Shown in pieces: positions 50,440 to 64,000 of a stretch of DNA of 64,000 bases. A program made the position numbers and the translations under genes. Numbering within the stretch: position 1 is the stretch's first letter; each line of letters begins with the position of its first letter. Under the pieces are notes generated by a model, which worked only from the letters and a program-made list of their open reading frames with translations, made no database searches and had not been told where the DNA came from. Origin of the DNA: Nanobdellota archaeon (lineage in GTDB: Archaea; Nanobdellota; Nanobdellia; JAAOXT01); the NCBI GenBank assembly GCA_018221045.1, contig JAAOXT010000004.1, positions 25,117 to 89,116 of the forward strand, in the 5' to 3' direction.

Positions 50440-52794
50440 TCATATCATGGGATATTGATAATCATTATCAGGGTAATCGTGTAACTCGTAAGGGTCAACT
50501 GCAAGAGGGGTATCAGATGTATAACTATATGGGTGGCAGTAATTAGAATCTGTATAATAACCTAAAAGGTCAATGAAGTGTATTTGTCCAAAGTTCACGA
50601 TGACGTCACAGATGTATGTTCTTTCCGCCCAGTCCATTATTTTTTGCACGTTGTAGTCTCCTACGCTTCGCTCGCATCCGAGTGGCGTCCACGTCGTTCC
50701 TTTTGGGCAGCAGTACTTTCCAGGAGTTTGGTCGAGTCCAGAGCAAGTTGAGCCTGGCTGGCACTCACATGAGCTAGTGCATTCTTTACCCGCTACGCTG
50801 GCGCTTACTTTGCTTTCGTATTTTTGTATGCATTCTTGCATTGAATCCCTTACCTGCGGGTAGCGCGGAGCCATGCACACGTCTGTCAGGCAGTTAGCGC
50901 AAACACCACCTATCAGCTCGGTTACTTGTCCAAACCCGGGTATTAGCATCCACCAGCAGCACCCCAACCAATTGGATTCAAGACAGTTCCTGCTTCGCTG
51001 TATCATCCCCCCATCAATAGCGTTATTGGCTTTGTTAGAATCATAATACTTAACATTTTCTCCGCTGTAATCAAATTTTTTATTCATAAAGCACATTTTG
51101 ATTTCTTGCTCGTTGTCCATTAATTCTTCTCCCGCATCATCAATTCTTATCATGTACCCGCAAGCATCCCTATCCTGTGCTGGACAATTTGGGTTGCAAA
51201 TAGCTTCTTCTGAATCATAAAGTGGACAATAGGATATACTCATGTCTTGCGGACAGTTCTCACAGTTCTCACCTAAATCAGTCTCTGCCACCCCGTTCCC
51301 GCAGTAAGGGAAGTAATTATAGTCCAGGAAACCTAATTTGTTTTCGTAGACAGGTATTGGCACGTTTTGACCGTAATCCGCTGACGTGATCACGTCGTAG
51401 TCGTACTCGTAATCATAGCAGTACTTCCATTCCCTGACCAAATCATAACTCGCCTCATTACCTGCAGAGCATGTTTTACTTATCTCAAAAATCGAGGTTT
51501 GGGAGCCTGAAACGGATTCTAGTTCACATTCTTGCCACGTGTCGATTGCCGTGCACTTGTACTTGGCGTTTTGCACGTAAATGTATCCTGTTCCTGTAAA
51601 GTCTCCTCCAGAAGCGCTTATTATGTCTTCATCAAATACTGAGAACGTTTTATCCATCCTATTGATTGTTATGCTATTCTTATCTCCTGACAAGTCCGTG
51701 TAAACGTCTTCTTGTGGTATCGAATCTATTGCGTGTTTGCCCGCGCCTTTCAGGTAACATTCTTCCTGTTCAACCAAGTCTAAACAGACTGAAGGGTTTA
51801 ATTTTGCTTCGTCGCAACTGTCTTGGCAAAACGTTTGGACTGAACCGCAGTTTTTCCATTTTTTGATACCATTCTCTACCACGATGTTTTCATCCTCATC
51901 TCTTACATAAGGGTCCACGTAGCAGTCTCCTGACGGGTTCCATTCAGTGGTTCCTGCTTCAGCGTCCCAATTGGTTTCCCAGCTTAACGGCCAATCGCTT
52001 GTCGTATGGCTTATGCTTGTGTCTCCTTTTATGGCGAAGGTAAATTTGATTGGTAGGCTCAGGATTTTTTTCTCCATCTTGTTAGGGAAGTTCATACAGC
52101 AAAGGATTTTTGGGTCTGACACGTTGATGAATGATGTTGAGTTATATCCCGCGCAGTTCACGCCGCTGCAGGACATGGGCTCTTGCACTCCTCCTTGACA
52201 GTCTTCATCGTTCCCGTCCTCTAATCCATCCATGTCATCATCCTCCCCATTGTTACATACATCCATACATTGACCGTCCTCACAACCAATTCCAGTTCGG
52301 GAGTTCCACTCGTTTGGAGAACAGTCGTAAACGTTTTTTCTTTCCAGTGGGCATCGAAAAGTTTTTTCAAAAAGACCGAAGCTTATGAGCCTCCAACAAC
52401 CTTCCGTGTCCCCGTAACAGTCTTTGTCTGCAGGGCAGATGTAATCATAGCCAGTTATTCCGCAAGTTCCAGTAAACCACTCTTCAACATTCTTCACGCA
52501 CCTTTTGCCTGTGTGTTCTAGCGTGCACGCAGTGTTTTCTGATTGCGTTATCTCTCCGTCCATTGAAACATCTACGTAAATTGTTTGGTCGTCTTCCACG
52601 TTTTGGAATGGGTTGACCGTTTCAGGCGGGGCTTTGTATTCTGATAAAGCGCTTCCAAGAACCATGACAGTGTTGCCAGACTGGTTGTTGTAATACATTT
52701 CCATGAAACCGTTGTAAATGTCTGACGGGTTCGCTGCAATAACTGTTGGAATAATGAACAAACAAGTGGTTATGAAGAGTAATTTTTTATCCAC
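50440..52794 (-). CDS. Cluster gene S: 784-aa secreted, extremely Cys-rich protein
   Basis: Sec-type signal MDKKLLFITTCLFIIPTVIAA. About 50 Cys by hand count. Acidic motif CNNGEDDDMDGLEDGNDEDC. Overlaps gene R by 8 nt. No family recognised. Confidence 0.7.
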   Translation of the reverse strand: MDKKLLFITTCLFIIPTVIAANPSDIYNGFMEMYYNNQSGNTVMVLGSALSEYKAPPETVNPFQNVEDDQTIYVDVSMDGEITQSENTACTLEHTGKRCVKNVEEWFTGTCGITGYDYICPADKDCYGDTEGCWRLISFGLFEKTFRCPLERKNVYDCSPNEWNSRTGIGCEDGQCMDVCNNGEDDDMDGLEDGNDEDCQGGVQEPMSCSGVNCAGYNSTSFINVSDPKILCCMNFPNKMEKKILSLPIKFTFAIKGDTSISHTTSDWPLSWETNWDAEAGTTEWNPSGDCYVDPYVRDEDENIVVENGIKKWKNCGSVQTFCQDSCDEAKLNPSVCLDLVEQEECYLKGAGKHAIDSIPQEDVYTDLSGDKNSITINRMDKTFSVFDEDIISASGGDFTGTGYIYVQNAKYKCTAIDTWQECELESVSGSQTSIFEISKTCSAGNEASYDLVREWKYCYDYEYDYDVITSADYGQNVPIPVYENKLGFLDYNYFPYCGNGVAETDLGENCENCPQDMSISYCPLYDSEEAICNPNCPAQDRDACGYMIRIDDAGEELMDNEQEIKMCFMNKKFDYSGENVKYYDSNKANNAIDGGMIQRSRNCLESNWLGCCWWMLIPGFGQVTELIGGVCANCLTDVCMAPRYPQVRDSMQECIQKYESKVSASVAGKECTSSCECQPGSTCSGLDQTPGKYCCPKGTTWTPLGCERSVGDYNVQKIMDWAERTYICDVIVNFGQIHFIDLLGYYTDSNYCHPYSYTSDTPLAVDPYELHDYPDNDYQYPMI

Positions 52795-55375
52795 AGCGGT
52801 TCACCTCCAGTCCCCAACAAGAACCGTATCGTACCACAAAGTATTCGTTTCCAAGAATATCTGTTCCAGAGCAACAGTTTTGTGTTTCTGGGTTAAAAAG
52901 CGATATGAATGTTCCGGCAGCGCAGTTAGCGCAACAGTATCCTGTTTGCTCGCAAACACTTACACTGTTATAATTAAATGTTTTTTGAGTTACTGTGCTA
53001 GTAGTAAACCCTGAGTTATGTGTACATGTAACTGTTAATTTCACGTTTATACTTGATTCGGGATACCCCTGCGCACAATCAGTATCGTGTTCCACAAACG
53101 TGATTAAATCCCTTGGGTTTTCGGTTGGCGAAGAAGGTGAAGGGTAAATAATGTCTCCATCCCTGTTCTTAACGAGCCAATGATAAACACAGTCGGTTTC
53201 AGGTATCCCACATTGCAGGTTGGAAGCTATTTTTTGGCTTGATCCTTGAGCGTTTAACCAATAATCCACTGAATCCACAAAAGTTATGCCACCACACCAC
53301 CACCCTCCTGAATACAATATCTTACCAATTGGCAATATGACTGCGTCGGGCACGGGCTTGGCGTCAAGTGTAATACTCATAGTAGTGCAGTTCGTGTGCC
53401 TGGTTTGAGGGTTGTCAACGCTCTGCGTTGTGCTCGGAGGACTGCCCGAAACATAGTTAGCTGTCACGCATACCTTCACGTCAGTCCTGGCGTAATTACT
53501 CCCCTCAGGAAACGTTAATTCCATCCTGGTTTGGTCGTTGTAACTGCTAGGCTGCTCAGTTCCCCCTATTTGATTGCCATTAGTGTCGTAATTTCTAACA
53601 AACCATCTTATTGTCTGTTGTCTTGCGAAGTGTTCGGACAAGTCGAAATAAGCTCCTACGCTTTGGCAAGCACTTCCTTGGATTAACTGGTCGTTGAAAG
53701 AGTAATAACCTTTTATTTTCCCTGAAAGCGCGCCGTAAGCCTTAAACAACTGGTCTTTAAATTCGTCGTCGAATCTTGTCAGGCTCTGCACTTTTTTGTC
53801 AGAGTAAGGCGGGGCTTCTTCCAAATCGTCGTTATCATCATTCCAAACATCATCGTAGAAGTCCCTGACCCTCTGCCTATCCGTGCTACCCCAATCTATC
53901 GTGCCGTCAGAGTCTATTTTGATTAAAGACACATCATCTGACATCTCTCTGGGCTTGCAGGGAACGCATGAAGTATTGTACGTTTCCATGGCGTAAGCGT
54001 AAGGGCTCAAATCACTATTAGTGTCAACGTAATCGATGCTGGCTTCGTTGTCCGTGAACGTGTAATTGTACCCGTCGTGCGATGCCGCAAGGCCTCTTTC
54101 AGAGTTGAACTCGTCAAGAATCATTTTTTCCACTCGGGAAGCGTCGTAAACACAGGTTGCACTGCAGTTCACAGGATCCTCTCCTGAACAACCTCCTGTC
54201 TTCACGGGTTCTCTGCTTGTTATCTTGCACGTCGGGTTTTGTGTGCTGAACTCTGGACTAGGGGTCTCGTACCAAACGAATTCCCCAACGCTTTTCTTAA
54301 TTCCTGGAACGCAACCCGTCCATTCACCGTCAACGCACATGCTGACCATTGTGGTTTTGCAGTTATTGCTGCCGCAGTCTTGGCTTGTTTCATTGTAGTT
54401 TTCAGTGTTGAAAGCGAATCTTTGTTTTAGCACGTGAACGTCGTTCACCCCGCTCGAGTAGGAGCCTGTGCACTGCCTTTCTTCGTAGAACTCTGTTATC
54501 GTCGAGTCCGGAGAATACTCCGCTCCGTAGCTCGTGTCAGCCGAGTACGTTCCTGTTTGGTCTATCCTGTAAGCGCAGGTTTCGTTGTGCGTGATGATTG
54601 AGTATTTGTTGAGTTGTTGTTTGGCCATGGTTTCGTAGTCTTTGTTTAAGACAAAGTTTTTGGCTTCTTCGTAAAGGCTTGGGAATTTGTTCTCCACCAC
54701 GTTGTGCACGAGGGTTGTGGCCGTGTAGCTGACGGATGGCTTGCCTTGGTAGCTCGCGCCAAGAAGTCTTATCTTGTCGTCGCCCACTATGAACCATTGA
54801 TTTTCAAAGTAATTTCTATCTGATGACGGGCATAGGTCTCCTCCAATGTCGCTGTTTTTCACTCCGCACGACGCCAGTTGGTAAACGTATTTTACGTTGA
54901 AGTTCAGTCCGTAAATTATTTCTAGACTGTTTAGGAAGTTCTGGTCTGGCGTGGCGGAGAATCTTTCAGCTATAAGTGTTATGTTATTGAGTATTGACGT
55001 GAATTCTGGAATGCAGAAGGAGGGATTGGATGACGCGTTGTACCAGTAAGGCACTACTTTTTCTGGCATGTAATTGTGTTTTGGGAGTGTGTCTAAGTAA
55101 CCGCATTCCTGGTCTCTTATTTGACTTTGGTTTCCGCCGTAACCCCCTCTGCTTCCTATTTGGTAAATTATTTTTTCGAAAGTGTATCTTCTTTCCCTGT
55201 CCAATAGGAATTTGATGTTTTCCGCTGTTTGGGCTGTCTGAACTATCTGTGTTCTATAAAAAGGCAAGGCAGATTCTGAGGAAGCTCTTATCGCAATGTA
55301 TCCCATCCCGAACGCTGCTAGCGACAATATTGATATTGTTACAAGTATGTAAGCTAAGGATTGGGCTTTTTTCAT
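52787..55375 (-). CDS. Cluster gene R: about 862-aa Cys-rich surface protein with a class III-like signal (MKKA|QSLAYILVTISILSLAAFG)
   Basis: ATG 55375 abuts the stop of gene Q. The track start 55456 lies inside Q. The long ectodomain has many Cys and ends in a CCANCAAG...CCSG...CWGLEVNRCG knot. Confidence 0.7.
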   Translation of the reverse strand: MKKAQSLAYILVTISILSLAAFGMGYIAIRASSESALPFYRTQIVQTAQTAENIKFLLDRERRYTFEKIIYQIGSRGGYGGNQSQIRDQECGYLDTLPKHNYMPEKVVPYWYNASSNPSFCIPEFTSILNNITLIAERFSATPDQNFLNSLEIIYGLNFNVKYVYQLASCGVKNSDIGGDLCPSSDRNYFENQWFIVGDDKIRLLGASYQGKPSVSYTATTLVHNVVENKFPSLYEEAKNFVLNKDYETMAKQQLNKYSIITHNETCAYRIDQTGTYSADTSYGAEYSPDSTITEFYEERQCTGSYSSGVNDVHVLKQRFAFNTENYNETSQDCGSNNCKTTMVSMCVDGEWTGCVPGIKKSVGEFVWYETPSPEFSTQNPTCKITSREPVKTGGCSGEDPVNCSATCVYDASRVEKMILDEFNSERGLAASHDGYNYTFTDNEASIDYVDTNSDLSPYAYAMETYNTSCVPCKPREMSDDVSLIKIDSDGTIDWGSTDRQRVRDFYDDVWNDDNDDLEEAPPYSDKKVQSLTRFDDEFKDQLFKAYGALSGKIKGYYSFNDQLIQGSACQSVGAYFDLSEHFARQQTIRWFVRNYDTNGNQIGGTEQPSSYNDQTRMELTFPEGSNYARTDVKVCVTANYVSGSPPSTTQSVDNPQTRHTNCTTMSITLDAKPVPDAVILPIGKILYSGGWWCGGITFVDSVDYWLNAQGSSQKIASNLQCGIPETDCVYHWLVKNRDGDIIYPSPSSPTENPRDLITFVEHDTDCAQGYPESSINVKLTVTCTHNSGFTTSTVTQKTFNYNSVSVCEQTGYCCANCAAGTFISLFNPETQNCCSGTDILGNEYFVVRYGSCWGLEVNRCG

Positions 55376-55845
55376 GGCGTGAACGTCACCCCTTGTTTTT
55401 TGAACATCATGACTATTGTTGGCTCGCCTGAGGGCGAGTAAACTTTTATGAAACATTGTAGCGCGTATTTTTGGGTGGCTTCATCGCTGATTATGCTTCT
55501 TAGCTCTGAGCTTGAGCCGAAGCGAACGTGCATTCCCACGCTTTGCTCAAACCCCGGGTTTCTTTCAAGTTCTTCTTGGAACGCGAAGTATGACGCTGAC
55601 CTGTTGTAAAGGCTTTGGTATTTTTGTTTGAGGAAAGTGTCTGGAGTCATTCCTGTTTTTGAGTAGTCACTGCTCACAAGGTTTTCAAGAAGGTTTGTGC
55701 ACATACTGCTGGTTTCAGCGTCTTTTATTGAGAGTATTGCTTGCATGCTCACAGAGTCCACGAACATGGACATCACTAAAAGCAGTCCCATTATGATTAT
55801 CGTGCTTATTATCACCCCTACTCCTGTAAAGTCTCCTTTTTTCAT
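55372..55845 (-). CDS. Cluster gene Q: 157-aa pilin-like protein (MKKG|DFTGVGVIISTIIIMGLLLV)
   Basis: Short basic leader ending in KG, then a hydrophobic helix of about 22 residues, then a globular part of about 120 aa with only 2 Cys. ATGA coupling with gene P. Confidence 0.65.
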   Translation of the reverse strand: MKKGDFTGVGVIISTIIIMGLLLVMSMFVDSVSMQAILSIKDAETSSMCTNLLENLVSSDYSKTGMTPDTFLKQKYQSLYNRSASYFAFQEELERNPGFEQSVGMHVRFGSSSELRSIISDEATQKYALQCFIKVYSPSGEPTIVMMFKKQGVTFTP

Positions 55846-56702
55846 ACTTGCACCTCGAATTGTGTTGCTTCACCAAGTTTTTCTGCAGTGTGGTATTGTA
55901 CGCAGTCGTACAAGTCCCAGCGGAAGTTATCCGGGTTGGGCGCGCTTACTCCACAGTACTTAAAGCCAAACAACAGGTTTGCCAGAAGGGTTTCGGTTTC
56001 TGGGATACAGTTCTCCCAAGGAGGTCTTATCAGGGCTGAAACGATTTGTGGTGATGGTGACGCTTCGCAGAATTTGCCGAAGAATCTTCCTAAGTGCTTG
56101 ACCTGGTCTCCTGTTTGCTTGTCTTGGTAAACAATGAACACTGGATAACTGTATTGGTAGACTTTATCTCCTAGGCTTGAGTTGCATGGAGTGGCCCACA
56201 TACAAGGCACCCCCCTATAACTCGTGGAATCGGGGTCAGGATAAGATGGTATGAAGTATGACCTGTCGTGCGTTTTGGTGAAGAACCACGTGTTATCGTT
56301 TTCAACGTCTTGAACAACGATGGAGTACAGGATGGCGGGTCTTTCAAACGGGTTGTAAGCTCTTCCTCCAAGACTTATTTCAGGGTCGTCTTGTTTTATG
56401 CATTCCATGTTCTTCCAGTTTTCGAGTTTGTAAGCGTCCAGCACTCCTGGATAGATTCTTTGCTTGTAGTACACGTTGTAGTCTGGCTCGTCCGTTATCA
56501 GCATGTCTTTTTGTTCGAATGCTAGGCAATCAGCGCTGGAAAGCATTTTTCTGGAGAACACGAGGAATCGGGTTTCGCTTTGAAGCGAGTCAATGCTGAA
56601 CCCAATGTTTTGAACTTTGAACACTAAAGTGATGACTACTATAAAGAACAATAAGACTAGCCAGAGCATGTATATAGGTCCTTTCAAACTGAAATCAGTC
56701 AT
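55842..56702 (-). CDS. Cluster gene P: 286-aa single-pass protein (MTDFSLKG|PIYMLWLVLLFFIVVITLVF)
   Basis: N-terminal helix after SLKG. No gap to the stop of gene O. Confidence 0.65.
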   Translation of the reverse strand: MTDFSLKGPIYMLWLVLLFFIVVITLVFKVQNIGFSIDSLQSETRFLVFSRKMLSSADCLAFEQKDMLITDEPDYNVYYKQRIYPGVLDAYKLENWKNMECIKQDDPEISLGGRAYNPFERPAILYSIVVQDVENDNTWFFTKTHDRSYFIPSYPDPDSTSYRGVPCMWATPCNSSLGDKVYQYSYPVFIVYQDKQTGDQVKHLGRFFGKFCEASPSPQIVSALIRPPWENCIPETETLLANLLFGFKYCGVSAPNPDNFRWDLYDCVQYHTAEKLGEATQFEVQV

Positions 56703-58505
56703 TTATGTTCCTCCCGCCCAATTGCAGAAATCTGTGTTGTCAGTGCAGTAACCGTCTGGCCCGCAACAATAACTTATCGGACAGCCGTCTTCAGCGCCAA
56801 GCATTGTCGGGTCTTCCGAGTCGTGAGTGCATTGCTTGCATTGGTTGAAGTCTTGGCAAAAACAGTTTGGTTGCTCGCAGGAACCGTGTTTTGGAATGCA
56901 TGGCCCGCACTCGCCGGTTTCTAAGCAACAATTGTTTGTGTTGATGTCATCAAACGTTTTTGAAACGCATCCTTTGCGCGGGTCGTCTTCTTCATTCACG
57001 CTTCCGTCGCAGGAAGGGTAGTGCGTGACAACACAGTTTTCTTGGGATGTCAGGATTATTCTATCATCGTCGTGGGATAAGGTGTTTAGACTGTCAGCGC
57101 ACACTTCGTAATCCAGGGACGCGTCAAGAGTTGTGCACCAGTCACTCCACGAATAAATTGCTGTTATTACGTGAGGGACATCAATCATTAGTTCGAATCC
57201 TTTGCTCGTCACGTCTTTTTTCAAGTTCACGCAGATCTCGTTGACCCATCCTCCATCGATTCCTCCCACTCCGAACTCGTATCTTACCAATGGTTGTTCG
57301 GATATTGTTTGGGTTTCTGGACTAGTGTATTCTGCTGGGATTAATCTTGAAGTTATGCCTTCCACGCTTTCTAACTCTGGGTAAAATGTTTTGACGTTGC
57401 CGATTGAATACGCTATGTTTGGAATTGGAAGGTTTTCGTTCGCGTTTTTTAAAGAGGTTTCAGTGGTTGGTTCACCGTCTTGTTCGATCCACGTGAAAAG
57501 TCCCTTCGGGCTCATAATTTGTTTTTGCTGACAAATCACCAGTGTTTCATCGTGGCAGTGACCATCCTGCCCGCAGTAATAAGTTTCAGGACATCCTTCC
57601 TCGCTTCCTGATTCTGAAGGGTTGTCAGGGTTGTACGTGCAGGGCACGCATTCGTACGAACCTGACACTCGTTTACAGTACTCGTTGTCTTGACAATCAT
57701 CGCACCAACATCTGTTAACAGTACCAACAGTACCCGTTCCTATTTCCAACAATTTTTCGGCATTTGTTAAACCAGTGCATGGAGGATTGTAAGATTGTCC
57801 GTTCGTGTCGGAAAAATTTATTCTGAACCCGGGGGTTAGGCTGAGGCTTGTTGTTTTATTGGTGAACACGCTGTTCTCCATTTGCGCGTAAACGCTCATC
57901 ACGTCCTGTAATAACCTTATCATTCCCACGTCTTCCGCAATGATTACGGGCGTCGTGCCCTCCTTATCGAAGAACAGTCCGCTTGTCAGCGAATCGTAAA
58001 AAGTTCTTCTTTGTTTGGATACGAGAACCGAATCTGTTCTTGGTTGAATGTATAATGGAATGCTTTGTCTTTCAAGGGCTTTTTCTTCAGCGAAGTCTGC
58101 GAAGTGCTGGCTTGTTGGAAAGCTTTGGCTTCTCTTTTCCTCGTCAACAGTGTACTCAACTTTCATGGACTCGTAGGCAAGCGTGTTCACGCCTTGAGTG
58201 CAAGGAGCTGGAGTGGTTTTAACGAAAGCAGGGTCCAGTCTTAACGAGGTTATGTTGATTTCTTCTCCTTGGCAATAGTAAATTCCTTGTTCCCATTTGC
58301 AGTCCGGCGTGCCGTAGTACAGCACGTAAACGTTGTCCGGGACGGCTGTGCAAGCTTCTCTTAGGGATGCAACGTCGTAAACGAGCAGAGCCATTTTTTT
58401 TCCCATGTCAAAGCTTGGCGCCATCATTCTTTGAACGACGAACGCTGACCCCACCACTAGTATCGCTGCCGCGACCAGTGCTCCTACTGTTTCTATTGAC
58501 GTCAA
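56703..58505 (-). CDS. Cluster gene O: 600-aa Cys-rich protein with an N-terminal helix (MTSIETVGALVAAAILVVGSAFVV) and an internal Cys-knot repeat
   Basis: The repeat CVPCTYNPDNPSESGSEEGCPETYYCGQDGHCHD resembles CKQCTHDSEDPTMLGAEDGCPISYCCGPDGYCTD. Confidence 0.7.
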   Translation of the reverse strand: MTSIETVGALVAAAILVVGSAFVVQRMMAPSFDMGKKMALLVYDVASLREACTAVPDNVYVLYYGTPDCKWEQGIYYCQGEEINITSLRLDPAFVKTTPAPCTQGVNTLAYESMKVEYTVDEEKRSQSFPTSQHFADFAEEKALERQSIPLYIQPRTDSVLVSKQRRTFYDSLTSGLFFDKEGTTPVIIAEDVGMIRLLQDVMSVYAQMENSVFTNKTTSLSLTPGFRINFSDTNGQSYNPPCTGLTNAEKLLEIGTGTVGTVNRCWCDDCQDNEYCKRVSGSYECVPCTYNPDNPSESGSEEGCPETYYCGQDGHCHDETLVICQQKQIMSPKGLFTWIEQDGEPTTETSLKNANENLPIPNIAYSIGNVKTFYPELESVEGITSRLIPAEYTSPETQTISEQPLVRYEFGVGGIDGGWVNEICVNLKKDVTSKGFELMIDVPHVITAIYSWSDWCTTLDASLDYEVCADSLNTLSHDDDRIILTSQENCVVTHYPSCDGSVNEEDDPRKGCVSKTFDDINTNNCCLETGECGPCIPKHGSCEQPNCFCQDFNQCKQCTHDSEDPTMLGAEDGCPISYCCGPDGYCTDNTDFCNWAGGT

Positions 58506-58509
58506 AGTT

Positions 58510-59544
58510 TTATCCTCCTACTGCTTTGATGAATATTGGGTGAAAGACTCTTTCTTCGTTGCTATTCACTGTTTGGTATGCTTTTTCGTTTTGGGTTGCG
58601 CTTATCACTTCCGCGCTGGTTTCACTCCAACCCATGAGAATTGGTATGAACGCTTGTGACGGGTTCGACGGGTTTTTGAGTCCTATTATTGCTGGTGCGC
58701 CTTGGTTTTCGCAACCCAGTTCTGACAGTTTTTTGCATGTTATGATCTTGTTGAAGAATGGGAAGTCCATTGGCCAGGACGCTCCTGCAATGGAATAAGC
58801 AGACGCTAAGAACGTGGCCCTTGAGAATTCTTCCAGCGCAGTGTAGGCCGTGCCGTAAACTCCTTCAATATCGTAAGATATTGTTTCGCCATTAACGTTG
58901 TTCACGACTAAGTATGTCATGCTTCCTACCCCGAAAACATTTTTTTCAGGGGTGAAAGCGTAATCCTTTGTTCCCACCATGTCAATTGCCTTCGTGTTTT
59001 GGTCAAAGATGGGTTGTTCTCCTCCAAAAAAATAAAGAAAATTGTTATCTGATGGAGGAGTGCTCTGGCCTAAACTCATTATCCAGTTAAGAACATCCAT
59101 AAACGTGTTAGTGTTCACGCTAGCTAAGCAGACGCAGTTATCACCTATTATTCCTCCTGTTCCCGCTGCAACGTTTGCATTGCACTTTTGGAGTTCTCCT
59201 TCAAATTTTTGTTTTTCCTGCGCTAATTGCTCGGACTTGTCAACAGACCATATCCAAAAGCTCTGCATTGTTGGAAGTTGTTCGTAATCTTCTCCCAAAG
59301 TATCAATTTCGGGGTGCGTTTGTATTATCATATAACCATAAGGTATTTTGAAGCCCGTGTCCGCCGCGTAACCGTTATCGCAGGCTCCTTGCAGCACTCT
59401 AGTGAATTTTGCGAAGCTAGCTCTGGCCTCAGCCCCTGCAAGAAAGCTTATTCCTCCTGAAACAACTATTGCTCCTACAACGAGAACAAACACTAAAACT
59501 AGCACGTCCTTAATTATTTCTCCATATAACAGCATTCTCGCCAT
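58510..59544 (-). CDS. Cluster gene N: 344-aa single-pass protein, paralog of gene L
   Basis: SFAKFTRVLQGACDNGYA, YMIIQTHPE and CVCLASVN align with AFEKFTTGISSACVNGYA, WNIIQVYPD and CLCLIRAP in gene L. Confidence 0.7.
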   Translation of the reverse strand: MARMLLYGEIIKDVLVLVFVLVVGAIVVSGGISFLAGAEARASFAKFTRVLQGACDNGYAADTGFKIPYGYMIIQTHPEIDTLGEDYEQLPTMQSFWIWSVDKSEQLAQEKQKFEGELQKCNANVAAGTGGIIGDNCVCLASVNTNTFMDVLNWIMSLGQSTPPSDNNFLYFFGGEQPIFDQNTKAIDMVGTKDYAFTPEKNVFGVGSMTYLVVNNVNGETISYDIEGVYGTAYTALEEFSRATFLASAYSIAGASWPMDFPFFNKIITCKKLSELGCENQGAPAIIGLKNPSNPSQAFIPILMGWSETSAEVISATQNEKAYQTVNSNEERVFHPIFIKAVGG

Positions 59545-59555
59545 TTTTTTTTTGT

Positions 59556-59750
59556 TTAAGACACTTTTATTTGGGTTAATCCTTCACTAGCGTTGCCTAA
59601 CAAGTTTTCAGAGCCTTGTGTGACGTTCCCGATGTTAGCTTTTCCAGACTCAATGTTCGGAAATATGAACAAGATTACCACAACCGCAACTATCAGGATT
59701 ATTATTAGTGTAAAAACCATTTTAAAACTCATTTCCGATCCCTTTTTCAT
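59556..59750 (-). CDS. Cluster gene M: 64-aa pilin-like protein (MKKG|SEMSFKMVFTLIIILIVAVVVILFIF)
   Basis: KG leader, hydrophobic helix and a short polar tail. Confidence 0.6.
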   Translation of the reverse strand: MKKGSEMSFKMVFTLIIILIVAVVVILFIFPNIESGKANIGNVTQGSENLLGNASEGLTQIKVS

Positions 59751-59791: not shown

Positions 59792-60748
59792 CTAGCTCGG
59801 AGTGCTCATGTACACTGGTTCAAAAGTGCTGGAGGACTCTGATTTTTCAAAAGTGATCAGTGAAGCTTGAGAGTTCTCCACTATCATGAACACAGGATTC
59901 AAGTCCATACCTTCTTTCATGGCGAGGATTGCTGAATTGTTGTAAAAGTTGGGTTGCGCGTTTCCGCATTTCATGGAGTTCATTGACGTGCAGGCCTCGA
60001 ACTTATCGATGAATACTAACGGCCACTTAGTAAGAGAATCAATTCCTATCAATAATGATACTGGTGTGAAAAAGTAGATTGTGTCAAGGCTTTTCAGGAC
60101 CGCGTAATCGCTTTTTTCAGGGTTGTGGAAATCTTGTTTCAGAAAGCTTATGTAATAAGGAATTACTTCGTTTCCGTTGTTCGAATCTATTTTAGGAAGA
60201 GGGTTTGGTGCATAGCTCATGATTCTAAGGTTTCTGAAGTTTTTAGTGGTTATTAGCGGCACGGGTACTTCCCCTGAATTATACGCGTCACTATCTAAGT
60301 TCAGGTCAAGGATGGACGGCGCTCTTATGAGGCACAGGCAGGGCGAGCCAATGGCTTGTCCTGTTCCTTCCCTGAATTGGCTGTTGCAAGAGTTTTCCGT
60401 TGTGTTAGTTATGTCGATTACTCTTTGCACTTTGTTTCTTAGTGCTTCGAATAAAGGGGAGAAAACTATCATTCCTTCCTCCTCATTCAACTCGTTTACT
60501 ATGTCTTGCATTCTTTCAGCGTCAGGGTATACTTGTATTATGTTCCAATCATCTGACAGTGAGAAGTCCTCTATTTCCGCGTATCCATTCACGCATGCAG
60601 AGCTAATCCCTGTAGTGAATTTTTCGAAGGCTATGTGGGCGAAAACAGCTCCGAGTCCTGAGATTATGCCGAAAGCCACTACGGTTACAATTAGTATGAA
60701 CACTGCTAGGACGGCGAAGTCGAATATTAGGTTTCCCCAATCCTCCAT
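59792..60748 (-). CDS. Cluster gene L: 318-aa single-pass protein, paralog of gene N
   Basis: See gene N. The + strand ORF 60219-60755 is its antisense shadow. Confidence 0.7.
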   Translation of the reverse strand: MEDWGNLIFDFAVLAVFILIVTVVAFGIISGLGAVFAHIAFEKFTTGISSACVNGYAEIEDFSLSDDWNIIQVYPDAERMQDIVNELNEEEGMIVFSPLFEALRNKVQRVIDITNTTENSCNSQFREGTGQAIGSPCLCLIRAPSILDLNLDSDAYNSGEVPVPLITTKNFRNLRIMSYAPNPLPKIDSNNGNEVIPYYISFLKQDFHNPEKSDYAVLKSLDTIYFFTPVSLLIGIDSLTKWPLVFIDKFEACTSMNSMKCGNAQPNFYNNSAILAMKEGMDLNPVFMIVENSQASLITFEKSESSSTFEPVYMSTPS

Positions 60749-60800: not shown

Positions 60801-60828
60801 GTTATGATAAAGTGGTTATGATAAAGTG
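60801..60828. repeat. Perfect 14-nt tandem duplication GTTATGATAAAGTG x2 spanning the stop codon of gene K
   Basis: Read directly: 60801-60814 is identical to 60815-60828. Confidence 0.9.
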
Positions 60829-61220
60829 CAGGTCCCGTCAACGCATTCATAACCAGAGTAAATGCATTCACTGTTTTTTGTGCAGGGTCCTCCTCTCCAT
60901 CCACCGCAACTGCCGTCTGTCAGGCATCTTCCCACGTCTTCTCCGCTCTTGCACGGCCTGTTAATGCAATCCGGGTCGTCGCAGTCTATCAGGAAGTCGC
61001 CGTCATTGTCTTTTCCGTCAGCGCACTCGTTCTCAACTCCTGAAGCAGTAGTGCCTATGTCTCCTACTCTACCAGCGGTTTCCTCGCTTCCTTGAGCTGA
61101 TTGGCCGGATATTGAGCCGAAGCCTTGTGTTAGGAAACTTTGTTGGCTTGTAAAGAACACTATCGCAGCGATTAATACTACTAATGCGATTATTATCATC
61201 ACGATTTTATTGAATTCCAT
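60816..61220 (-). CDS. Cluster gene K: 134-aa pilin-like helix (MEFNKIVMIIIALVVLIAAIVFF) fused to a Cys-rich module
   Basis: CADGKDNDGDFLIDCDDPDC followed by PCKSGEDVGRCLTDGSCGGWRGGPCTKNSECIYSGYECVDGTC, which is paralogous to the C-terminus of gene J. Confidence 0.7.
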   Translation of the reverse strand: MEFNKIVMIIIALVVLIAAIVFFTSQQSFLTQGFGSISGQSAQGSEETAGRVGDIGTTASGVENECADGKDNDGDFLIDCDDPDCINRPCKSGEDVGRCLTDGSCGGWRGGPCTKNSECIYSGYECVDGTCTLS

Positions 61221-61241
61221 CTTTTTTTGGGTTGGTTTTTT

Positions 61242-61259
61242 AAAAAAAAATAAAAAAAA
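61242..61259 (-). terminator. Oligo-T tracts (T8 and T9 on the coding strand) after gene J: candidate archaeal intrinsic terminator
   Basis: The + strand reads A9-T-A8. These are the longest T runs I noticed on the coding strand within the cluster. Confidence 0.4.
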
Positions 61260-61277
61260 TGTAAGTTTTTACTTTGT

Positions 61278-61682
61278 TTATGTTGGACAAGTCTCTGCAG
61301 TTATGCACGTGCCATCACAGCACATTTGACCTGAATACGAACAGTCCAGATTTTTTTCGCAAGGCCCGTTCATCCATCCTCCACAAACACCTATGGACAA
61401 GCATTCTCCTGTTTCGACACCTTCACTGCAGGGTTTTCCCAAGCAGGCCTTTAATTCACATTGTGGTGGTACAGGACATCCTGTTCCTGTTACAACTCCT
61501 GGCAGGCTTCCAATGGTTTCTTCTGTTTGAGAGCCTTGTTCGCCAGTGGCTGTGGATAGTCCTCCTAACCCTCCTGCTAGTGTTCCTAATTGGGATGTGA
61601 ATAATACAATCACTCCTATTATGACCACTATTATTATCAAGAGGGTTGCTATTGTTTGGAACTCCATTCCTTTGTTATTCAT
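61278..61682 (-). CDS. Cluster gene J: pilin-like protein with leader MNNKG|MEFQTIATLLIIIVVIIGVIVLF and a Cys-rich C-terminal module
   Basis: ATG 61682 lies 5 nt after the stop of gene I. ATG 61667 would start at MEFQTI, as in the paralogs. The track start 61697 is a GTG inside gene I. Confidence 0.7.
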   Translation of the reverse strand: MNNKGMEFQTIATLLIIIVVIIGVIVLFTSQLGTLAGGLGGLSTATGEQGSQTEETIGSLPGVVTGTGCPVPPQCELKACLGKPCSEGVETGECLSIGVCGGWMNGPCEKNLDCSYSGQMCCDGTCITAETCPT

Positions 61683-61687
61683 GATTA

Positions 61688-61882
61688 TTACGCGCACTCC
61701 GGGGCGTCCGGGTTTATGAAACAGTTAACGCTTCCTGTTGCTTCTGTTGTCGCATCCCCGCTGGTTGTTTGCAATTGTCCAGTCGCATCCCCTGCAGGAC
61801 CCATCTGGGTTACGAAAAATATTATGGCGACCACCGCGACTATCAAAATGATTATTAAAGTAAATATGGTTTGAAACTGCAT
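61688..61882 (-). CDS. Cluster gene I: 64-aa pilin-like protein (MQFQTIFTLIIILIVAVVAIIFF)
   Basis: ATG 61882 lies 1 nt after the stop of gene H and is preceded by GGAGGAG. The track start 61915 is a TTG inside gene H. The tail has 2 Cys (CFINPDAPEC). Confidence 0.65.
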   Translation of the reverse strand: MQFQTIFTLIIILIVAVVAIIFFVTQMGPAGDATGQLQTTSGDATTEATGSVNCFINPDAPECA

Positions 61883-61883
61883 T

Positions 61884-62120
61884 TTAAACTCCTCCCTCCA
61901 CGCATTGCCCGTCAACGCAAGTGAATCCTTCGTCGCATTGAGCGTCTGAAGCGCAGAAATTGGTTATGGTTCCCGTGGCTACGGTGGATTGTTCTTGAGT
62001 CGCCCCGCTCAGTTCTTGTTGAGGCACCGTTAGCTGGCCGAATTGAGTTACGAAAACTATTATCACTGCAATGATGACTATAAGAATGATGAGCAATGTT
62101 GCTATAGTCTGGAATTCCAT
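61884..62120 (-). CDS. Cluster gene H: 78-aa pilin-like protein (MEFQTIATLLIILIVIIAVIIVF) with a 4-Cys tail
   Basis: Tail CASDAQCDEGFTCVDGQC. There is no in-frame upstream start before a stop codon (checked by hand). Confidence 0.65.
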   Translation of the reverse strand: MEFQTIATLLIILIVIIAVIIVFVTQFGQLTVPQQELSGATQEQSTVATGTITNFCASDAQCDEGFTCVDGQCVEGGV

Positions 62121-62146
62121 TTTCTTTCTTCTATTTTTAGTGCGTG

Positions 62147-62158
62147 TTTTTTAATAAA
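62147..62158 (-). promoter_or_regulatory. Candidate internal TATA box (TTTATTAAAAAA on the coding strand) ending 26 nt upstream of the gene H ATG
   Basis: AAAGTTTATTAAAAAAC resembles the GTTTATA-type elements upstream of lrp and the tRNAs. It implies a near-leaderless mRNA. Confidence 0.3.
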
Positions 62159-62173
62159 CTTTTTCATGATTTC

Positions 62174-62356
62174 TTAACCGCCAGGCGGGGTGTAACCCGA
62201 TATTAGGTCTCCTGCTTCAGTGGTTTTATCTCCTGTTTCCCCAGTTAATTCTTCTGTGGGAGCGTTCATGGTTCCGAACCCGGTTATGAAAAATATTATT
62301 ACCACTACCACGACTAGTATTATGATTAATAGCGTGAATATGGTTTGAAACTGCAT
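62174..62356 (-). CDS. Cluster gene G: 60-aa pilin-like protein (MQFQTIFTLLIIILVVVVVIIFF)
   Basis: Lies 7 nt after the stop of gene F. No in-frame upstream start. The polar tail has no Cys. Confidence 0.6.
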   Translation of the reverse strand: MQFQTIFTLLIIILVVVVVIIFFITGFGTMNAPTEELTGETGDKTTEAGDLISGYTPPGG

Positions 62357-62363
62357 TTTATTT

Positions 62364-62792
62364 TTATCTCGTTCTTGTGGAAGTTCTTCCCCCTGTTACG
62401 GTCGAGCGATCGCAGTCCGGTGAACCGGTCCAGCCGATAGTTCTTGTCTTGCCGTCTTGAGTGCTTGCAGTGCATGTTGGCAGGACTGCTTCGCAGTAAG
62501 TTGTTCTGAGTGTTCCTGTTTCGTCAGCTATGTCTAAGGATAGCGTGCAGTATCTCGAGTCCGACACGTCTTGCTTTGAGTAAACCATCAGGTTTAGTTC
62601 GTTGCATGCTTGCTGGCAGGAAGTTCTTAACGCGGTTAGGTCTGATCCTCCTGTCGCGCCCGCGCCAACAGTGCTTATCTGTCCGAAAAGTTGGGAGCCG
62701 CCTGTCATGAAGAACACTCCTATGACTATCAGCACAAGCAAAGCCATTATTATTATGATTATCATGTTTATGGGCATTCCTTGGGCTTTCAC
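62364..62792 (-). CDS. Cluster gene F: 142-aa pilin-like protein (MKAQG|MPINMIIIIIMALLVLIVIGVFF) with a 6-Cys globular part
   Basis: The track start is GTG 62792, which gives a KAQG leader. The first ATG (62777) would start at MPINM. Confidence 0.6.
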   Translation of the reverse strand: MKAQGMPINMIIIIIMALLVLIVIGVFFMTGGSQLFGQISTVGAGATGGSDLTALRTSCQQACNELNLMVYSKQDVSDSRYCTLSLDIADETGTLRTTYCEAVLPTCTASTQDGKTRTIGWTGSPDCDRSTVTGGRTSTRTR

Positions 62793-62829
62793 AACCTATT
62801 TTTTAGACGTTTAAACTTAAATACTTTAT

Positions 62830-63159
62830 TTAAGAAAGTTGCGCGCAAAACCCTTCTACGCAGTTTAAGCCCTGACAACATGGCTCTTCGCCTCCGCATT
62901 CTTGTCCGCTGGTCTTGCAAGTGCAAACGCTTTCCGAGCAATAAAATCCTCTGCAGCACTTTATTCCTTGTGACACGTCGCAGAAAGTTCCTTTTCCAAC
63001 GCATCCCGCAATGTTGGCAATGGTTGACGAGCCCGACTTGCCGAGTTCTTCTCCACCTTCTTTTACTTGTTCTAACGGGCTGAGACCAAGCAGGAAGGCC
63101 ACACCTATCATAAGTAGTGCTAAGATTAATACCATAACTAAGACTAATGAATTTTTCAT
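62830..63159 (-). CDS. Cluster gene E: 109-aa N-terminal helix plus two tandem 6-Cys knottin-like modules
   Basis: Module 1 is C-x6-C-x7-CC-x4-C-x4-C and module 2 is C-x6-C-x5-CC-x4-C-x4-C (CVGKGTFCDVSQGIKCCRGFYCSESVC-T-CKTSGQECGGEEPCCQGLNCVEGFC). Confidence 0.7.
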   Translation of the reverse strand: MKNSLVLVMVLILALLMIGVAFLLGLSPLEQVKEGGEELGKSGSSTIANIAGCVGKGTFCDVSQGIKCCRGFYCSESVCTCKTSGQECGGEEPCCQGLNCVEGFCAQLS

Positions 63160-63302
63160 GTTGAGGGTAATAAACTGGTTGGTATTTGTGAGTAGGCTTG
63201 GGCTTGGTCTTTAGATGTTTCGAGCATTGGAACCCCGAATAAAAGGACTATTACAAGCATTATCAGGGCGAGCACTATTATTATTATTGTTTTCATTTCC
63301 AT
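63156..63302 (-). CDS. Cluster gene D: 48-aa pilin-like protein, absent from the ORF track
   Basis: Hand translation gives MEMKTIIIIVLALIMLVIVLLFGVPMLETSKDQAQAYSQIPTSLLPST. The stop overlaps the gene E ATG (ATGA). Confidence 0.55.
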   Translation of the reverse strand: MEMKTIIIIVLALIMLVIVLLFGVPMLETSKDQAQAYSQIPTSLLPST

Positions 63303-63305
63303 TGT

Positions 63306-63449
63306 TTATTCACCGAATAATCCGAACGCTAAATCGTTCATTTTCCCGCCTTGCTCTTGAGCTTGACCTAAATATTGGATTCCTAACATGACTAGCATCG
63401 CTACGAACATTACTATAAGAATCATTATCATCACTGTTTTCAGTTCCAT
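63306..63449 (-). CDS. Cluster gene C: 47-aa pilin-like protein, absent from the ORF track
   Basis: Hand translation gives MELKTVMIMILIVMFVAMLVMLGIQYLGQAQEQGGKMNDLAFGLFGE. Lies 7 nt after the stop of gene B and 3 nt before the gene D ATG. Confidence 0.55.
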   Translation of the reverse strand: MELKTVMIMILIVMFVAMLVMLGIQYLGQAQEQGGKMNDLAFGLFGE

Positions 63450-63456
63450 TTGCTTA

Positions 63457-63627
63457 TTATCCCCATCCCATGCTTTGGCCCATAGCGTTTATGACTGTCC
63501 CGCTCTGCTCCCTCCAAGGAGTGATTAAGAATATTATTAATAAAACCGCAATGACTAATCCTATCACAACCAGTATTATTATGAACGTCTGGTCTATCTC
63601 GAAACGGGCCTTATTATTTAATTTCAT
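63457..63627 (-). CDS. Cluster gene B: 56-aa pilin-like protein (MKLNNKA|RFEIDQTFIIILVVIGLVIAVLLIIF)
   Basis: ATG 63627 overlaps the stop of gene A (ATGA). The track start 63660 lies inside gene A. Confidence 0.6.
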   Translation of the reverse strand: MKLNNKARFEIDQTFIIILVVIGLVIAVLLIIFLITPWREQSGTVINAMGQSMGWG

Positions 63628-64000
63628 TCCACAACCTCTTTGATGCATATCACCACACAATCTAAAGGCGCGCGGTCAGCGTTTTTTATTACCGCATTAT
63701 TACAGTAGTCGCTGGTAATAAATGGTTTTGCTGACGCCGCAGAGTCATAATAAGATACATATACTTTCCCGTTTTTTAGTGTTTCGTCAAGCAGTTTATT
63801 ATCCATTTCCATGTTTGTGCATAAAGTTCCAGGGGAATCATAATCAAAGCACAATAGAACTTTATTCGGGTTCAATAATTCTTTATAGGTTTGGCCGCGG
63901 TCCGGAAAGTATTCTTGGTCATATTCATCGTATAAGCCTCCAACCTCTTTATTCTTTTCGAAATCGTACAAGAAAGCGTAGCATTTTGATAAAGGTTGTT
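63624..64000 (-). CDS. Cluster gene A: C-terminal part of a protein whose 5' end lies beyond the window
   Basis: The frame stays open upstream of the track's TTG start (...QPLSKCYAFLYDFEKNK...) to position 64000. The visible part has 6 Cys. Confidence 0.55.
   Translation of the reverse strand, partial: QPLSKCYAFLYDFEKNKEVGGLYDEYDQEYFPDRGQTYKELLNPNKVLLCFDYDSPGTLCTNMEMDNKLLDETLKNGKVYVSYYDSAASAKPFITSDYCNNAVIKNADRAPLDCVVICIKEVVE

Follow-up and report, generated by a model that had tools for sequence, protein, structure and literature searches.

We consider it fairly probable that the region described here is an array of pilin genes within a type IV filament (TFF) operon from a DPANN (Nanoarchaeota/Nanoarchaeia-type) archaeon, and that its leaderless copies join the filament without a prepilin-peptidase step. 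The operon lies on the minus strand of the 64,000-nucleotide stretch that was analysed (the window) and runs from beyond the window end down to position 50440. Its tandem genes from 63627 to 59556 (minus strand) encode proteins of 47 to 142 aa that share the N terminus M-[EQS]-[FLM]-x-[TKM]-[IV] followed by ~20 hydrophobic residues. To our knowledge, every known type IV pilin requires a prepilin peptidase. Our specific proposal, which is tentative and which we would sooner call possible than probable, is that C, D, G, H, I, and K represent the first type IV pilins to lack a leader by nature, being translated in “mature” form (Met = +1) and entering the filament beside processed paralogues without a peptidase step. 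If this is true, peptidase cleavage is not obligatory for TFF assembly. Leaderless pilins, invisible to FlaFind-type searches, could then account for reports of DPANN genomes with a TFF ATPase yet no recognizable pilins or peptidase (PMC4858521). The genes are listed below, with a slash marking the leader cleavage position.

A, 63624..64000, minus strand: gene lying upstream of B, truncated by the window end so that only its 3' part is present; orthologue of a 271-aa protein in locus L001 (MNISEQAQPVIITLVVLGILF).
B, 63457..63627, minus strand: 56-aa mini-protein, MKLNNKA/RFEIDQTFIIILVV, with a leader (K-A); marginal family member; identical protein in L001.
C, 63306..63449, minus strand: 47-aa leaderless mini-pilin-like protein (MELKTVMIMILIV), N terminus MELKTVMIMIL; HMM member.
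D, 63156..63302, minus strand: 48-aa leaderless mini-pilin-like protein (MEMKTIIIIVLAL), N terminus MEMKTIIIIVL; the more distant D-like homologue P0023 starts MEVKTII.
E, 62830..63159, minus strand: 109 aa, with a hydrophobic helix (MKNSLVLVMVLIL) at the N terminus and, in tandem, two knottin-like modules of the pattern C-C-CC-C-C.
F, 62364..62792, minus strand: pilin-like, 142 aa, starting with the leader that is canonical for the family, (GTG)MKAQG-MPINMIIIII; the C-terminal domain contains CxxxC.
G, 62174..62356, minus strand: 60-aa leaderless mini-pilin-like protein (MQFQTIFTLLIIIL), N terminus MQFQTIFTLLIIILVVVVVIIFF.
H, 61884..62120, minus strand: 78-aa leaderless mini-pilin-like protein (MEFQTIATLLIILIV), N terminus MEFQTIATLLIILIVIIAVIIVF, with a small Cys-rich C terminus.
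I, 61688..61882, minus strand: 64-aa leaderless mini-pilin-like protein (MQFQTIFTLIIILIV), N terminus MQFQTIFTLIIILIVAVVAIIFF; orthologues start MQFRTIF (L002) and MEFQTIF (L007).
J, 61278..61682, minus strand: 134-aa pilin-like protein with a class III-type leader, MNNKG/MEFQTIATLL (MNNKG-MEFQTIATLLIIIVVIIGVIVLF), and a Cys-rich C-terminal module.
J-K intergenic region, 61221..61277, minus strand: T-run then A-run (tttttttt a ttttttttt aaaaaa); same arrangement in L001 and L002.
K, 60816..61220, minus strand: leaderless and pilin-like, 134 aa (MEFNKIVMIIIALVV); contains an acidic repeat of double-disulfide-like type and has a Cys-rich C terminus.
L, 59792..60748, minus strand: paralogue of N, 318 aa, whose N-terminal helix is pilin-like (MEDWG/NLIFDFAVLAVFIL).
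M, 59556..59750, minus strand: 64-aa mini-pilin of canonical form, MKKG/SE-MSFKMVFTLIIILIV; L002 orthologue (V)KKG/ESSAFRIV.
N, 58510..59544, minus strand: 344-aa paralogue of L, MARMLLYG/EIIKDVLVLVF.
O, 56703..58505, minus strand: 600-aa Cys-rich protein, N terminus M-T-S-I-E-T-V-G-A-L-V, with Glu at position 5.
P, 55842..56702, minus strand: 286-aa protein, MTDFSLKG/PIYMLWLVLLFF.
Q, 55372..55845, minus strand: 157-aa pilin-like protein, MKKG/DFTGVGVIISTIII.
R, 52787..55375, minus strand: 862-aa protein with a class III-type N terminus, MKKA/QSLAYILVTISIL (L002 form, MKG/QSLAYVLV); candidate adhesin or large minor pilin.
S, 50440..52794, minus strand: 784-aa product of the final operon gene, with a Sec-like signal peptide (MDKKLLFITTCLFIIPTVIA/ANP).

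All 18 genes from B to S encode an N-terminal hydrophobic helix, compared to 1 of the 44 other (control) open reading frames in the window. The TFF machinery was assigned from a syntenic, 95%-identical relative, L009, as the ATPase and platform genes lie beyond the window end. In L009, the operon is headed by a T2SSE ATPase (61 bits; cut-off, 24.9), followed by a T2SSF-like platform protein of 710 aa with approximately nine TM-like segments (T2SSF match, E of 5e-4); both genes are directly upstream of the pilin array. The operon head also includes an 1854-aa protein with the N terminus MKG/, whose orthologue is encoded on the window's own contig. More than 20 genes follow, each with a product that opens with a pilin-type hydrophobic helix. 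Neither an ATPase nor a platform gene was found inside the 64-kb window, and a prepilin peptidase (A24 family: PibD/FlaK/EppA) was found neither there nor in the 25-kb L009 locus.

The initial annotation had described a family of ten tandem mini-proteins, with the open reading frames placed correctly on the minus strand and the N termini of G, H, I, J, K, C, D, and M quoted as we find them, and had proposed an HMM search of the N termini. We built an HMM of 45 positions from eight N termini and searched 1.84 billion representatives exhaustively at an E of ≤1e-3. Only 36 representative proteins matched, some from this clade itself, and the organism, where the source names one, belongs to the Nanoarchaeia. 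Family members outside the training set scored from 3e-10 to 1e-3. Nine window proteins fit this HMM (C, D, F, G, H, I, J, K, and M); B aligns by its hydrophobic core only.

Nearly all matches outside this clade have canonical class III leaders ending in [KR][GAS], e.g., MKKAQG/MSMQTIV, MKKKG/VELSLQTIV, and MKKG/MAVQTVV. The family's ordinary form is M-x(0-n)-[KR]-[GAS], 0 to 2 residues, [ML]-[SPE]-[MLF]-[QN]-T-[IV], ~20 hydrophobic residues, and FFTxxG. Two of the outside matches sit in homologous ATPase-headed operons (L004/L005 and L010/L011), which likewise encode a polytopic platform protein, and almost every pilin-like gene in L005 and L010, the two operons read, has a leader ending in [KR][GAS]. 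The L005 operon is homologous to and colinear with that of the window, with the ATPase 72% identical and the platform protein 42% identical over 677 aa. F, M, P, Q, and R likewise match L005 proteins; by BLASTP, F matches a 129-aa protein (MKAQGLPINFIV; E of 2.6e-6) and P a 362-aa protein (E of 4e-15). The positional counterparts of C in L005 carry MKKA/MKKG/MKAS leaders (slashes here separating the variants), and the counterpart of O starts MKSQVDVALLIG.

Within this clade (the window and three related loci), the leader is kept in the mini-proteins J, M, F, and B and the larger proteins Q, R, and P. These leaders are short and basic, end in [KR][GA], and precede a ~20-residue hydrophobic helix: J (MNNKG/), M (MKKG/), F (MKA/QG), B (MKLNNKA/), Q (MKKG/), R (MKKA/Q), and P (SLKG/). 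The leader is lost in C, D, G, H, I, and K, and O likewise lacks a [KR][GAS] site. J had already been credited with a classical short leader, and it is genuine because its L002 orthologue (MNMNKKG/IQFQTIAVLL) has Ile, not Met, at +1 and must start translation upstream. Two proteins are orthologous to J, P0002 (81% identity; MNNKG/MEFQTI) and P0003 (60% identity; MNMNKKG/IQFQTI). In C, D, G, H, I, and K, the initiating Met aligns with the +1 column of J (KG/MEFQTI), extending to all six what had been observed for G and H, and nothing precedes the helix except M-[EQ]-x-x-x. A single operon does combine copies of one helix that carry a leader with copies that natively have none.

Since they begin exactly where a processed pilin would, the leaderless mini-pilins may not need a prepilin peptidase. 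Glu or Gln at position 2 would block removal of the initiator Met, so that the primary leaderless product would have the N terminus of peptidase-processed J. The leaderless proteins would insert N-in/C-out. They have acidic, Thr/Gly-rich tails with 0 to 1 Lys/Arg (H has no Lys or Arg in the entire protein), and the acidity, the near lack of Lys/Arg, and the often disulfide-rich character argue for an extracellular position. The ATPase/platform machine could then draw these proteins into the same helix-core filament as the processed subunits, or into its base/tip complex, with no prepilin-peptidase step; peptidase-independent insertion, one of the two readings suggested in the initial annotation, is a reasonable inference. 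The adhesive parts on display would comprise O, R, and S among the large proteins and the small Cys-knot tails that H, J, and K carry. Counting against the filament reading, the absence of a positively charged leader leaves the leaderless proteins with no evident N-in signal.

An alternative that we regard as unlikely, if by no means negligible, is that the leaderless copies are not filament subunits but membrane-resident accessory, anchoring, or stator-like TFF parts, or surface anchors for small Cys-rich tails, and that loss of the leader withdraws a paralogue from assembly. There is precedent inside TFF operons in ArlF and ArlG, which are archaellin-like, are without a class III signal peptide, and can be non-filament parts of the TFF machine (PMC10117864). 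The presence of leaderless and leader-bearing forms in one operon also suggests a division of labour, and no route is known by which a subunit that the peptidase does not recognize is passed to the platform. However, H, G, and I have N-terminal helices that hardly differ from the one in processed J, and since the filament core is made of exactly that helix segment, co-assembly with J is the simplest expectation. The genes number six or seven, and several encode just 47 to 64 aa with no folded domain for a stator role (C, D, G, H, and I have tails of 23 to 54 residues with no domain detected). The runs between J and K are probably a terminator and a TATA-like promoter, from which K would be transcribed separately with almost no leader, as might be expected of an abundant structural subunit. 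In the archaellum, ArlF and ArlG (FlaF/FlaG) are single-copy, have an archaellin domain of the beta-sandwich type, and act as stator or anchor, whereas the leaderless proteins of the window are multi-copy and mostly domain-less, with helices almost identical to that of a leader-bearing paralogue. We rejected membership in an ArlF/ArlG-like group, as the archaellin domain was not found in the window proteins and the absence of a class III leader is all the two have in common.

It is highly improbable that the missing leaders are an annotation artefact, with real starts lying upstream at non-canonical codons or reached via recoding. Gene callers do mis-start such proteins: in L008, two “MSIQTIV” proteins truly read MRRGFG/MSIQTIV and MHRRAS/MSIQTIV, and P0020 and P0022 (“MQTIV...”) look truncated. 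In the window, however, C, D, G, H, and K have no ATG, GTG, TTG, ATT, ATA, ATC, or CTG between the preceding in-frame stop and the ATG, a result that the initial annotation had obtained for G and H with the three canonical codons. In-frame stops in the window lie 1 to 16 codons upstream of the leaderless starts (1 codon for D, as also for L). Upstream of C, none of the 13 in-frame codons that reach back to the stop is a start, both in the window and in L001; the 13 upstream codons of G in the window are equally free of starts, and the GTG that L001 has at -12 is not conserved. In L007, H and I begin 1 to 2 nt past the stop of the preceding gene, the H orthologue (MMEFQII) starting 2 nt past the stop of G. 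Also in favour of upstream starts, I has a TTG in frame 11 codons before its ATG, both in the window and in L001. This TTG is not conserved (L007 has GTG at -8), overlaps the end of H and the GGAGG serving the ATG ~8 nt downstream, and gives no [KR][GA] at -2/-1. Across the four loci, no in-frame ATG/GTG/TTG is conserved upstream of C, D, G, H, I, and K, and no leaderless gene is preceded by a peptide ending in [KR][GA], except for a start-less KKG before K in L002. Set against the canonical leaders outside, this absence of conserved upstream starts implies that leader loss is derived and confined to this clade.

Less probable still is that the mini-proteins form a family of small membrane proteins with no relation to pilins (e.g., TatA-like or generic single-pass peptides), as the initial annotation had considered, or decaying pseudogene copies of J: significant pilin-profile matches are indeed missing and TatA (E of 0.065) is among the top, nonsignificant PDB matches, but the genes lie in a TFF operon, relatives outside the clade have class III-type leaders, no amphipathic Lys-rich helix follows an FG-like hinge, and a dN/dS well below 1, with order and sequence kept across four loci, argues against pseudogenes. 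Where changes suffice for measuring, dN/dS against orthologues was 0.05 to 0.30 (D, 0.30 versus L001; J, 0.28; K, 0.15 versus L002; F, 0.07; G, 0.05), and paralogues differ at many synonymous sites, which account for most of their differences. Judged by these substitutions, the tandem mini-protein genes are under purifying selection and functional.

The mini-proteins belong to an unannotated pilin family without a match to any curated profile. Also counting against the filament reading, no pilin or archaellin profile of Pfam or NCBIfam scored above its cut-off (Flp1_like, 17.3 bits against 33.5; Tad, 13.6 against 22.3), and a ComGC N-terminus match to M was sub-threshold (19.3 bits; cut-off, 75). 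A profile search of the PDB gave nothing significant, with Iho670 at an E of 0.08 to 0.24 and TatA chains at 0.065 to 0.13. TatA/E membership was rejected given a match over the TM segment only, the acidic Thr/Gly-rich tails, and the TFF genomic context. The AlphaFold (AF2) models of L (pLDDT 35; helix 2-54 only) and F (pLDDT 45 overall; helix 8-37 only, pLDDT 75 to 86) are too poor for judging a pilin fold.

Among known systems, the array resembles archaeal class III pilins (such as the short Epd-type major pilin MMP1685, arCOG06620, of Methanococcus maripaludis) and bacterial Flp/Tad pilins in its proteins of 50 to 140 aa dominated by one N-terminal hydrophobic helix, in having many paralogues whose operon also encodes a T2SSE-family ATPase and a TadC/T2SSF-like platform protein, and in the short basic leader ending in [KR][GA(S)] of J, M, F, Q, R, and nearly all distant relatives. 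It differs from them in lacking an above-threshold Pfam or NCBIfam pilin match and in its six leaderless members. The mature motif of the window family, x-E/G-[ML]-[SP]-[ML]-Q-T-I or [MIL]-E-F-x-T-I, is neither QxSxE (DUF361/class III) nor G/xxxxEY (Flp; the last slash marking cleavage). With no EY motif and Flp1_like below its cut-off, a Flp/Tad-type assignment was rejected. In the adhesion filament protein Iho670 of Ignicoccus hospitalis (PDB 3J1R/5KYH), residues 5-23 (IATLLLILIAVAAAVLLYT) align with profile positions 6-24 in nearly the same register, although the match is not significant, and the protein differs in having 303 aa and a cleaved leader; we treat the match as a lead and not as a test of membership.

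The operon's pairing of numerous small pilin-like proteins with very large ones whose N termini are pilin-like (R, 862 aa; O, 600 aa; and the 1854-aa protein) recalls bacterial T4P/T2SS minor pilins and tip adhesins (PilVWX-PilY1 and GspHIJK) and suggests a priming or tip complex plus adhesins. No sequence relationship to these was detected, and the bacterial examples are all made as prepilins. The FTLI/FTLL of some members had been likened to the bacterial FTLIE motif. These residues are 7-10 of the start, not +1, with no Glu5 and a different register, and we consider the resemblance a coincidence. E is not a member of the M-E-F-Q-T-I family but a different Cys-rich protein with an MKNS... 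N terminus, absent from the HMM alignment, and its Pfam Conotoxin match (27.8 bits; cut-off, 25.1) is probably convergent. L has two clusters only in a database of 5.8 billion proteins, and the positional counterpart of S in L004/L005 contains PKD domains.

The window holds archaeal markers (GatD/GatE, archaeal PheRS alpha and beta, two FtsZ paralogues, tRNA intron endonuclease, and NucS). Its closest relative is "Candidatus Parvarchaeota archaeon Meg19_1012_Bin_507," and both organisms are DPANN/Nanobdellati. The mini-genes are part of a single long minus-strand operon (genes A to S, from beyond 64000 to 50440). An N-terminal hydrophobic helix was found in all 18 products of B to S compared to 1 of 44 other open reading frames in the window. 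The window ends within the operon. In the syntenic relative, gene order is the same and most proteins are 92 to 100% identical (J, 78 to 81%).

Upstream part of the operon in the syntenic relative, and features of the window outside the operon
Relative: T2SSE secretion ATPase, 61 bits, Walker A GTRGAGKT
Relative: 710-aa protein, ~9 TM-like segments, sub-threshold match to the platform protein T2SSF (E 5e-4)
Relative: 1854-aa protein, begins MKG/IIEPVAAAIVG (slash, predicted leader cleavage point)
Relative: four further proteins with N-terminal helices, then B
Window 4689-7226 (-): 845-aa protein, ~14 predicted TM segments, no Pfam match
Window 12124-13197 (+): FtsZ paralogue
Window 48043-49182 (-): FtsZ paralogue, just downstream of the filament operon, adjoining an FKBP26-type PPIase (49327-50031)

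An orthologue of the 1854-aa protein is encoded on the window's own contig. The relatives have both a type IV filament (TFF) ATPase and a platform protein; the locus is a TFF locus, and the mini-genes are its pilin array.

All open reading frames of the array lie on the minus strand, with coordinates and N-termini as quoted in the initial annotation. G, H, I, and the part of J that follows its leader have M-[EQ]-F-Q-T-I-[AF]-T-L-[LI]-I-I and then a hydrophobic run in common, and K, C, and D have looser forms. M (MKKGSE-MSFKMVFTLIIILIV) is also a family member, with a helix near-identical to that of I. The DNA sequences of the paralogues diverge at many third-codon positions, which rules out recent copying. 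When orthologues from two related loci were compared, dN/dS was 0.05 to 0.30 where substitutions suffice (K, 0.15; J, 0.28; and M, 0.18, all against L002, another locus of the same clade). Thus, the mini-genes are real and constrained. The likeness of FTLI/FTLL to the bacterial FTLIE motif, proposed earlier, was rejected because the register is wrong. A scan of JGI metagenomes with the motif M[EQ]FQTI[AF]T gave no match.

Using a profile of eight N-termini, we searched 1.84 billion representative proteins exhaustively and obtained 36 proteins at an E value of ≤1e-3. Nearly all of them, except close relatives, have a short basic leader, such as MKKAQG-MSMQTIV, MKAQG-LSMQTIA, MKNKKAME-LSLQTIA, MKKKGVE-LSLQTIV, MNKKAQE-LPIQTIV, MKKG-MAVQTVV, or MKGA-LEFETII. 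The common pattern is [KR][GAS], 0 to 2 residues (often x-[EG]), and [ML]-[SP]-[MLF]-[QN]-T-[IV], which by its sequence is of the class III (prepilin) signal type. In the window, this pattern is seen in F (MKAQG-MPINMII) and M. Members with a named source come from "Candidatus Nanoarchaeia" MAGs and are all labeled "hypothetical protein." Three distant members lie on long contigs; two are in operons that share this plan and have the ATPase gene at their head (L004/L005 and L010/L011), and the third is in a stand-alone pair. The L005 operon is homologous to and colinear with that of the window clade (ATPase, 72% identical; platform protein, 42% over 677 aa), with F, M, P, Q, R, and a 362/271-aa pair also matching. 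Leaders that end in [KR][GAS] are encoded by nearly all pilin-like genes of L005 and L010.

Within the clade, a leader precedes the helix in seven operon genes and is missing from six or seven. The short leader of J is genuine: the L002 orthologue reads MNMNKKG/IQFQTIAVLL, with ATT (Ile) in place of the second ATG of the window, so translation of J starts upstream, and the K-G of J is kept at a synonymous distance of ~1.2. In the window, C, D, G, H, and K have zero ATG, GTG, TTG, ATT, ATA, ATC, or CTG codons between the in-frame stop and the ATG, in agreement with the earlier claim for H and G, which had considered fewer codons. For D, the stop is 1 codon upstream. These genes have true leaderless starts. 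In the family alignment, the leaderless initiator Met occupies the conserved M/L column, which is +1 in J and the homologue P0019 and +3 in most others; an internal Met codon already present probably made 5' truncation easy. Leader loss is restricted to the window, L001/L009 (the syntenic relative), L002, and L007 (another locus of the clade). Given the canonical leaders outside the clade and true leaderless starts inside it, we infer that leader loss is derived.

Several other N-termini of the operon are unusual. O (56703-58505, -) starts with TTG in the window and L001 and with ATG in L002, with GGAGG ~8 nt upstream; its M-[TA]-S-[IV]-E-T-V-G-A-L-V corresponds to MKSQVDVALLIG in L005, the Lys having been lost. 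In L002 (688-702), the ATG of K is preceded by TAA-AAA-AAA-GGA, i.e., a stop and then "K-K-G." We rejected this as a functional leader on account of the stop codon immediately upstream; it may be what remains of a former KKG leader or simply A-rich promoter sequence. L (59792-60748, -) and N (58510-59544, -) are paralogues (23% identical, E 3e-13) that have conserved Cys residues and the motif NGYA in common, and their N-termini (MEDWG/ and MARMLLYG/) end in aromatic-Gly ahead of the helix, which could be an atypical cleavage site with no basic residue at -2. Homologues of L fell into two clusters only in a database of 5.8 billion proteins and, among GTDB representatives, came from one genome, that of the L001 contig. 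A JGI-metagenome scan with the L/N alignment gave no match.

How would leaderless subunits enter a filament? Glu or Gln at position 2 would leave the initiator Met in place, so that G, H, I, and K would be born with the N-terminus that J gains by cleavage. Tails of the leaderless proteins are acidic with 0 to 1 Lys/Arg, and disulfide modules are frequent (H, J, and K), which suggests an extracellular C-terminus, as in the topology of prepilins. N-in orientation would then be set without basic residues. Since N-terminal helices make up the core of type IV filaments and those of the leaderless proteins are near-identical to that of J, co-assembly is the simplest model: the ATPase/platform machine would assemble leaderless and processed subunits together, bypassing the peptidase step. 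Alternatively, the leaderless copies could be ArlF/ArlG-like parts of the machine retained in the membrane, a reading that we regard as possible but less likely.

We compared Lys/Arg content after the helix as a form of positive-inside compensation and found 0.45 per 20 residues in leaderless versus 1.28 in leader-bearing proteins (Mann-Whitney p 0.02). However, the depletion is just as strong in the leader-bearing proteins of this clade (0 to 1), so compensation was rejected, and Lys/Arg scarcity is a trait of the lineage and not of leaderlessness. Between J and K (window 61221-61277; L002 655-700), a conserved T-run and then A-run ends ~19 nt before the ATG of K; these look like a terminator and a TATA box that would yield a separate, nearly leaderless K mRNA. 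With a promoter-like element of its own, K may be an abundant subunit. A TTTATTAAAAAA element lies ~35 to 45 nt before the ATG of H.

Automated gene calls can produce false leaderless pilins. In L008, a locus of distant members, the public calls at 249-443 and 539-727 begin at an internal conserved Met ("MSIQTIV"), while the true reading from the upstream ATG gives MRRGFG/MSIQTIV and MHRRAS/. The public calls of homologues P0020 and P0022 likewise start at an internal Met ("MQTIV"). The upstream frame therefore needs to be checked case by case. Mis-annotated starts are nonetheless unlikely in the window clade, where C, D, G, H, and K passed that check and the few other upstream starts occur in single loci: GTG -12 for G and TTG -22 for K, both in L001, and for I, TTG -11 (window and L001) and GTG -8 (L007). 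None of these is conserved or yields [KR][GA] at -2/-1. On the 666-bp contig of L007, moreover, H starts 2 nt and I 1 nt past the stop of the preceding gene. A family of non-pilins or pseudogenes, including the membrane-helix family distinct from pilins raised by the initial annotation, is contradicted by the TFF context, the leader-bearing homologues, and dN/dS; a TatA reading was also rejected.

The Cys-rich tails vary among members. Following its N-terminal helix, E (62830-63159, -) has the tandem cysteine frameworks C-x6-C-x7-CC-x4-C-x4-C and C-x6-C-x5-CC-x4-C-x4-C, an inhibitor-cystine-knot pattern that is unusual for an archaeal surface protein. Its match to Pfam "Conotoxin" (27.8 bits, cut-off 25.1) is probably convergence, not homology. 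That match aside, no family scored above threshold when all operon proteins and ten distant family members were scanned against Pfam and NCBIfam. J (61278-61682, -) and K (60816-61220, -) share the C-terminal module CGGW..GPC.....C.YSG..C.DGTC, and an acidic double-disulfide-like repeat occurs in K (NF033662, sub-threshold at 31.9 bits, cut-off 41). O has two similar Cys-rich modules (…C..C…EDGCP..YCCG.DG.C), and H (61884-62120, -) groups with J, K, and O among the Cys-rich proteins. These modules of J, K, H, and O may be disulfide-stabilized adhesive tips. DPANN episymbionts are thought to rely on surface filaments for host attachment, and the Cys-knot tails and giant proteins with pilin-type N-termini are candidate host-attachment adhesins.

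To our knowledge, all type IV pilins, pseudopilins, and archaellins characterized to date are synthesized as prepilins, and an A24 peptidase must remove the basic leader before assembly. We found no description of natural leaderless pilins in the literature on leaderless or peptidase-independent pilins. A 2016 census listed two nanoarchaea with a TFF ATPase and without a prepilin peptidase (PMC4858521), and in a 2026 preprint on the diversity of archaeal TFFs, the class III peptidase still counts among the universal components of the core (10.64898/2026.04.22.720090). What is new here, at the level of predicted genes, is an unannotated Nanoarchaeia pilin family and a clade with several leaderless members. 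Although the clade is very small, the findings at gene level are firm and would be unexpected to those who study pili. The clade is a natural experiment in that the new start falls where the product of a leader-bearing sister gene would be cleaved, and its repeated dropping of the leader probes what the leader and its removal do in orientation, retention, quality control, and subunit ordering. Neither Pfam nor NCBIfam has a model for the family, and its leaderless members would escape signal-based pilin finders, so DPANN pilin repertoires are probably undercounted.

The closest known kinds are the short archaeal and bacterial Epd/Flp-type pilins and archaeal class III signal-peptide proteins generally, although the family falls outside the profiles of curated pilin families. 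A PDB profile search gave nothing significant; Iho670, a non-significant match, is almost in register when counted from its mature N-terminus. Predicted models of L (three sequences, pLDDT 35) and F (four sequences, pLDDT 45) were too poor for Foldseek. In the third Nanoarchaeia TFF operon (L010/L011, 3299-3940), a gene for a 213-aa SAM-methyltransferase sits between the ATPase and platform genes, a curious placement given that we know of no N-methylation of archaeal pilins.
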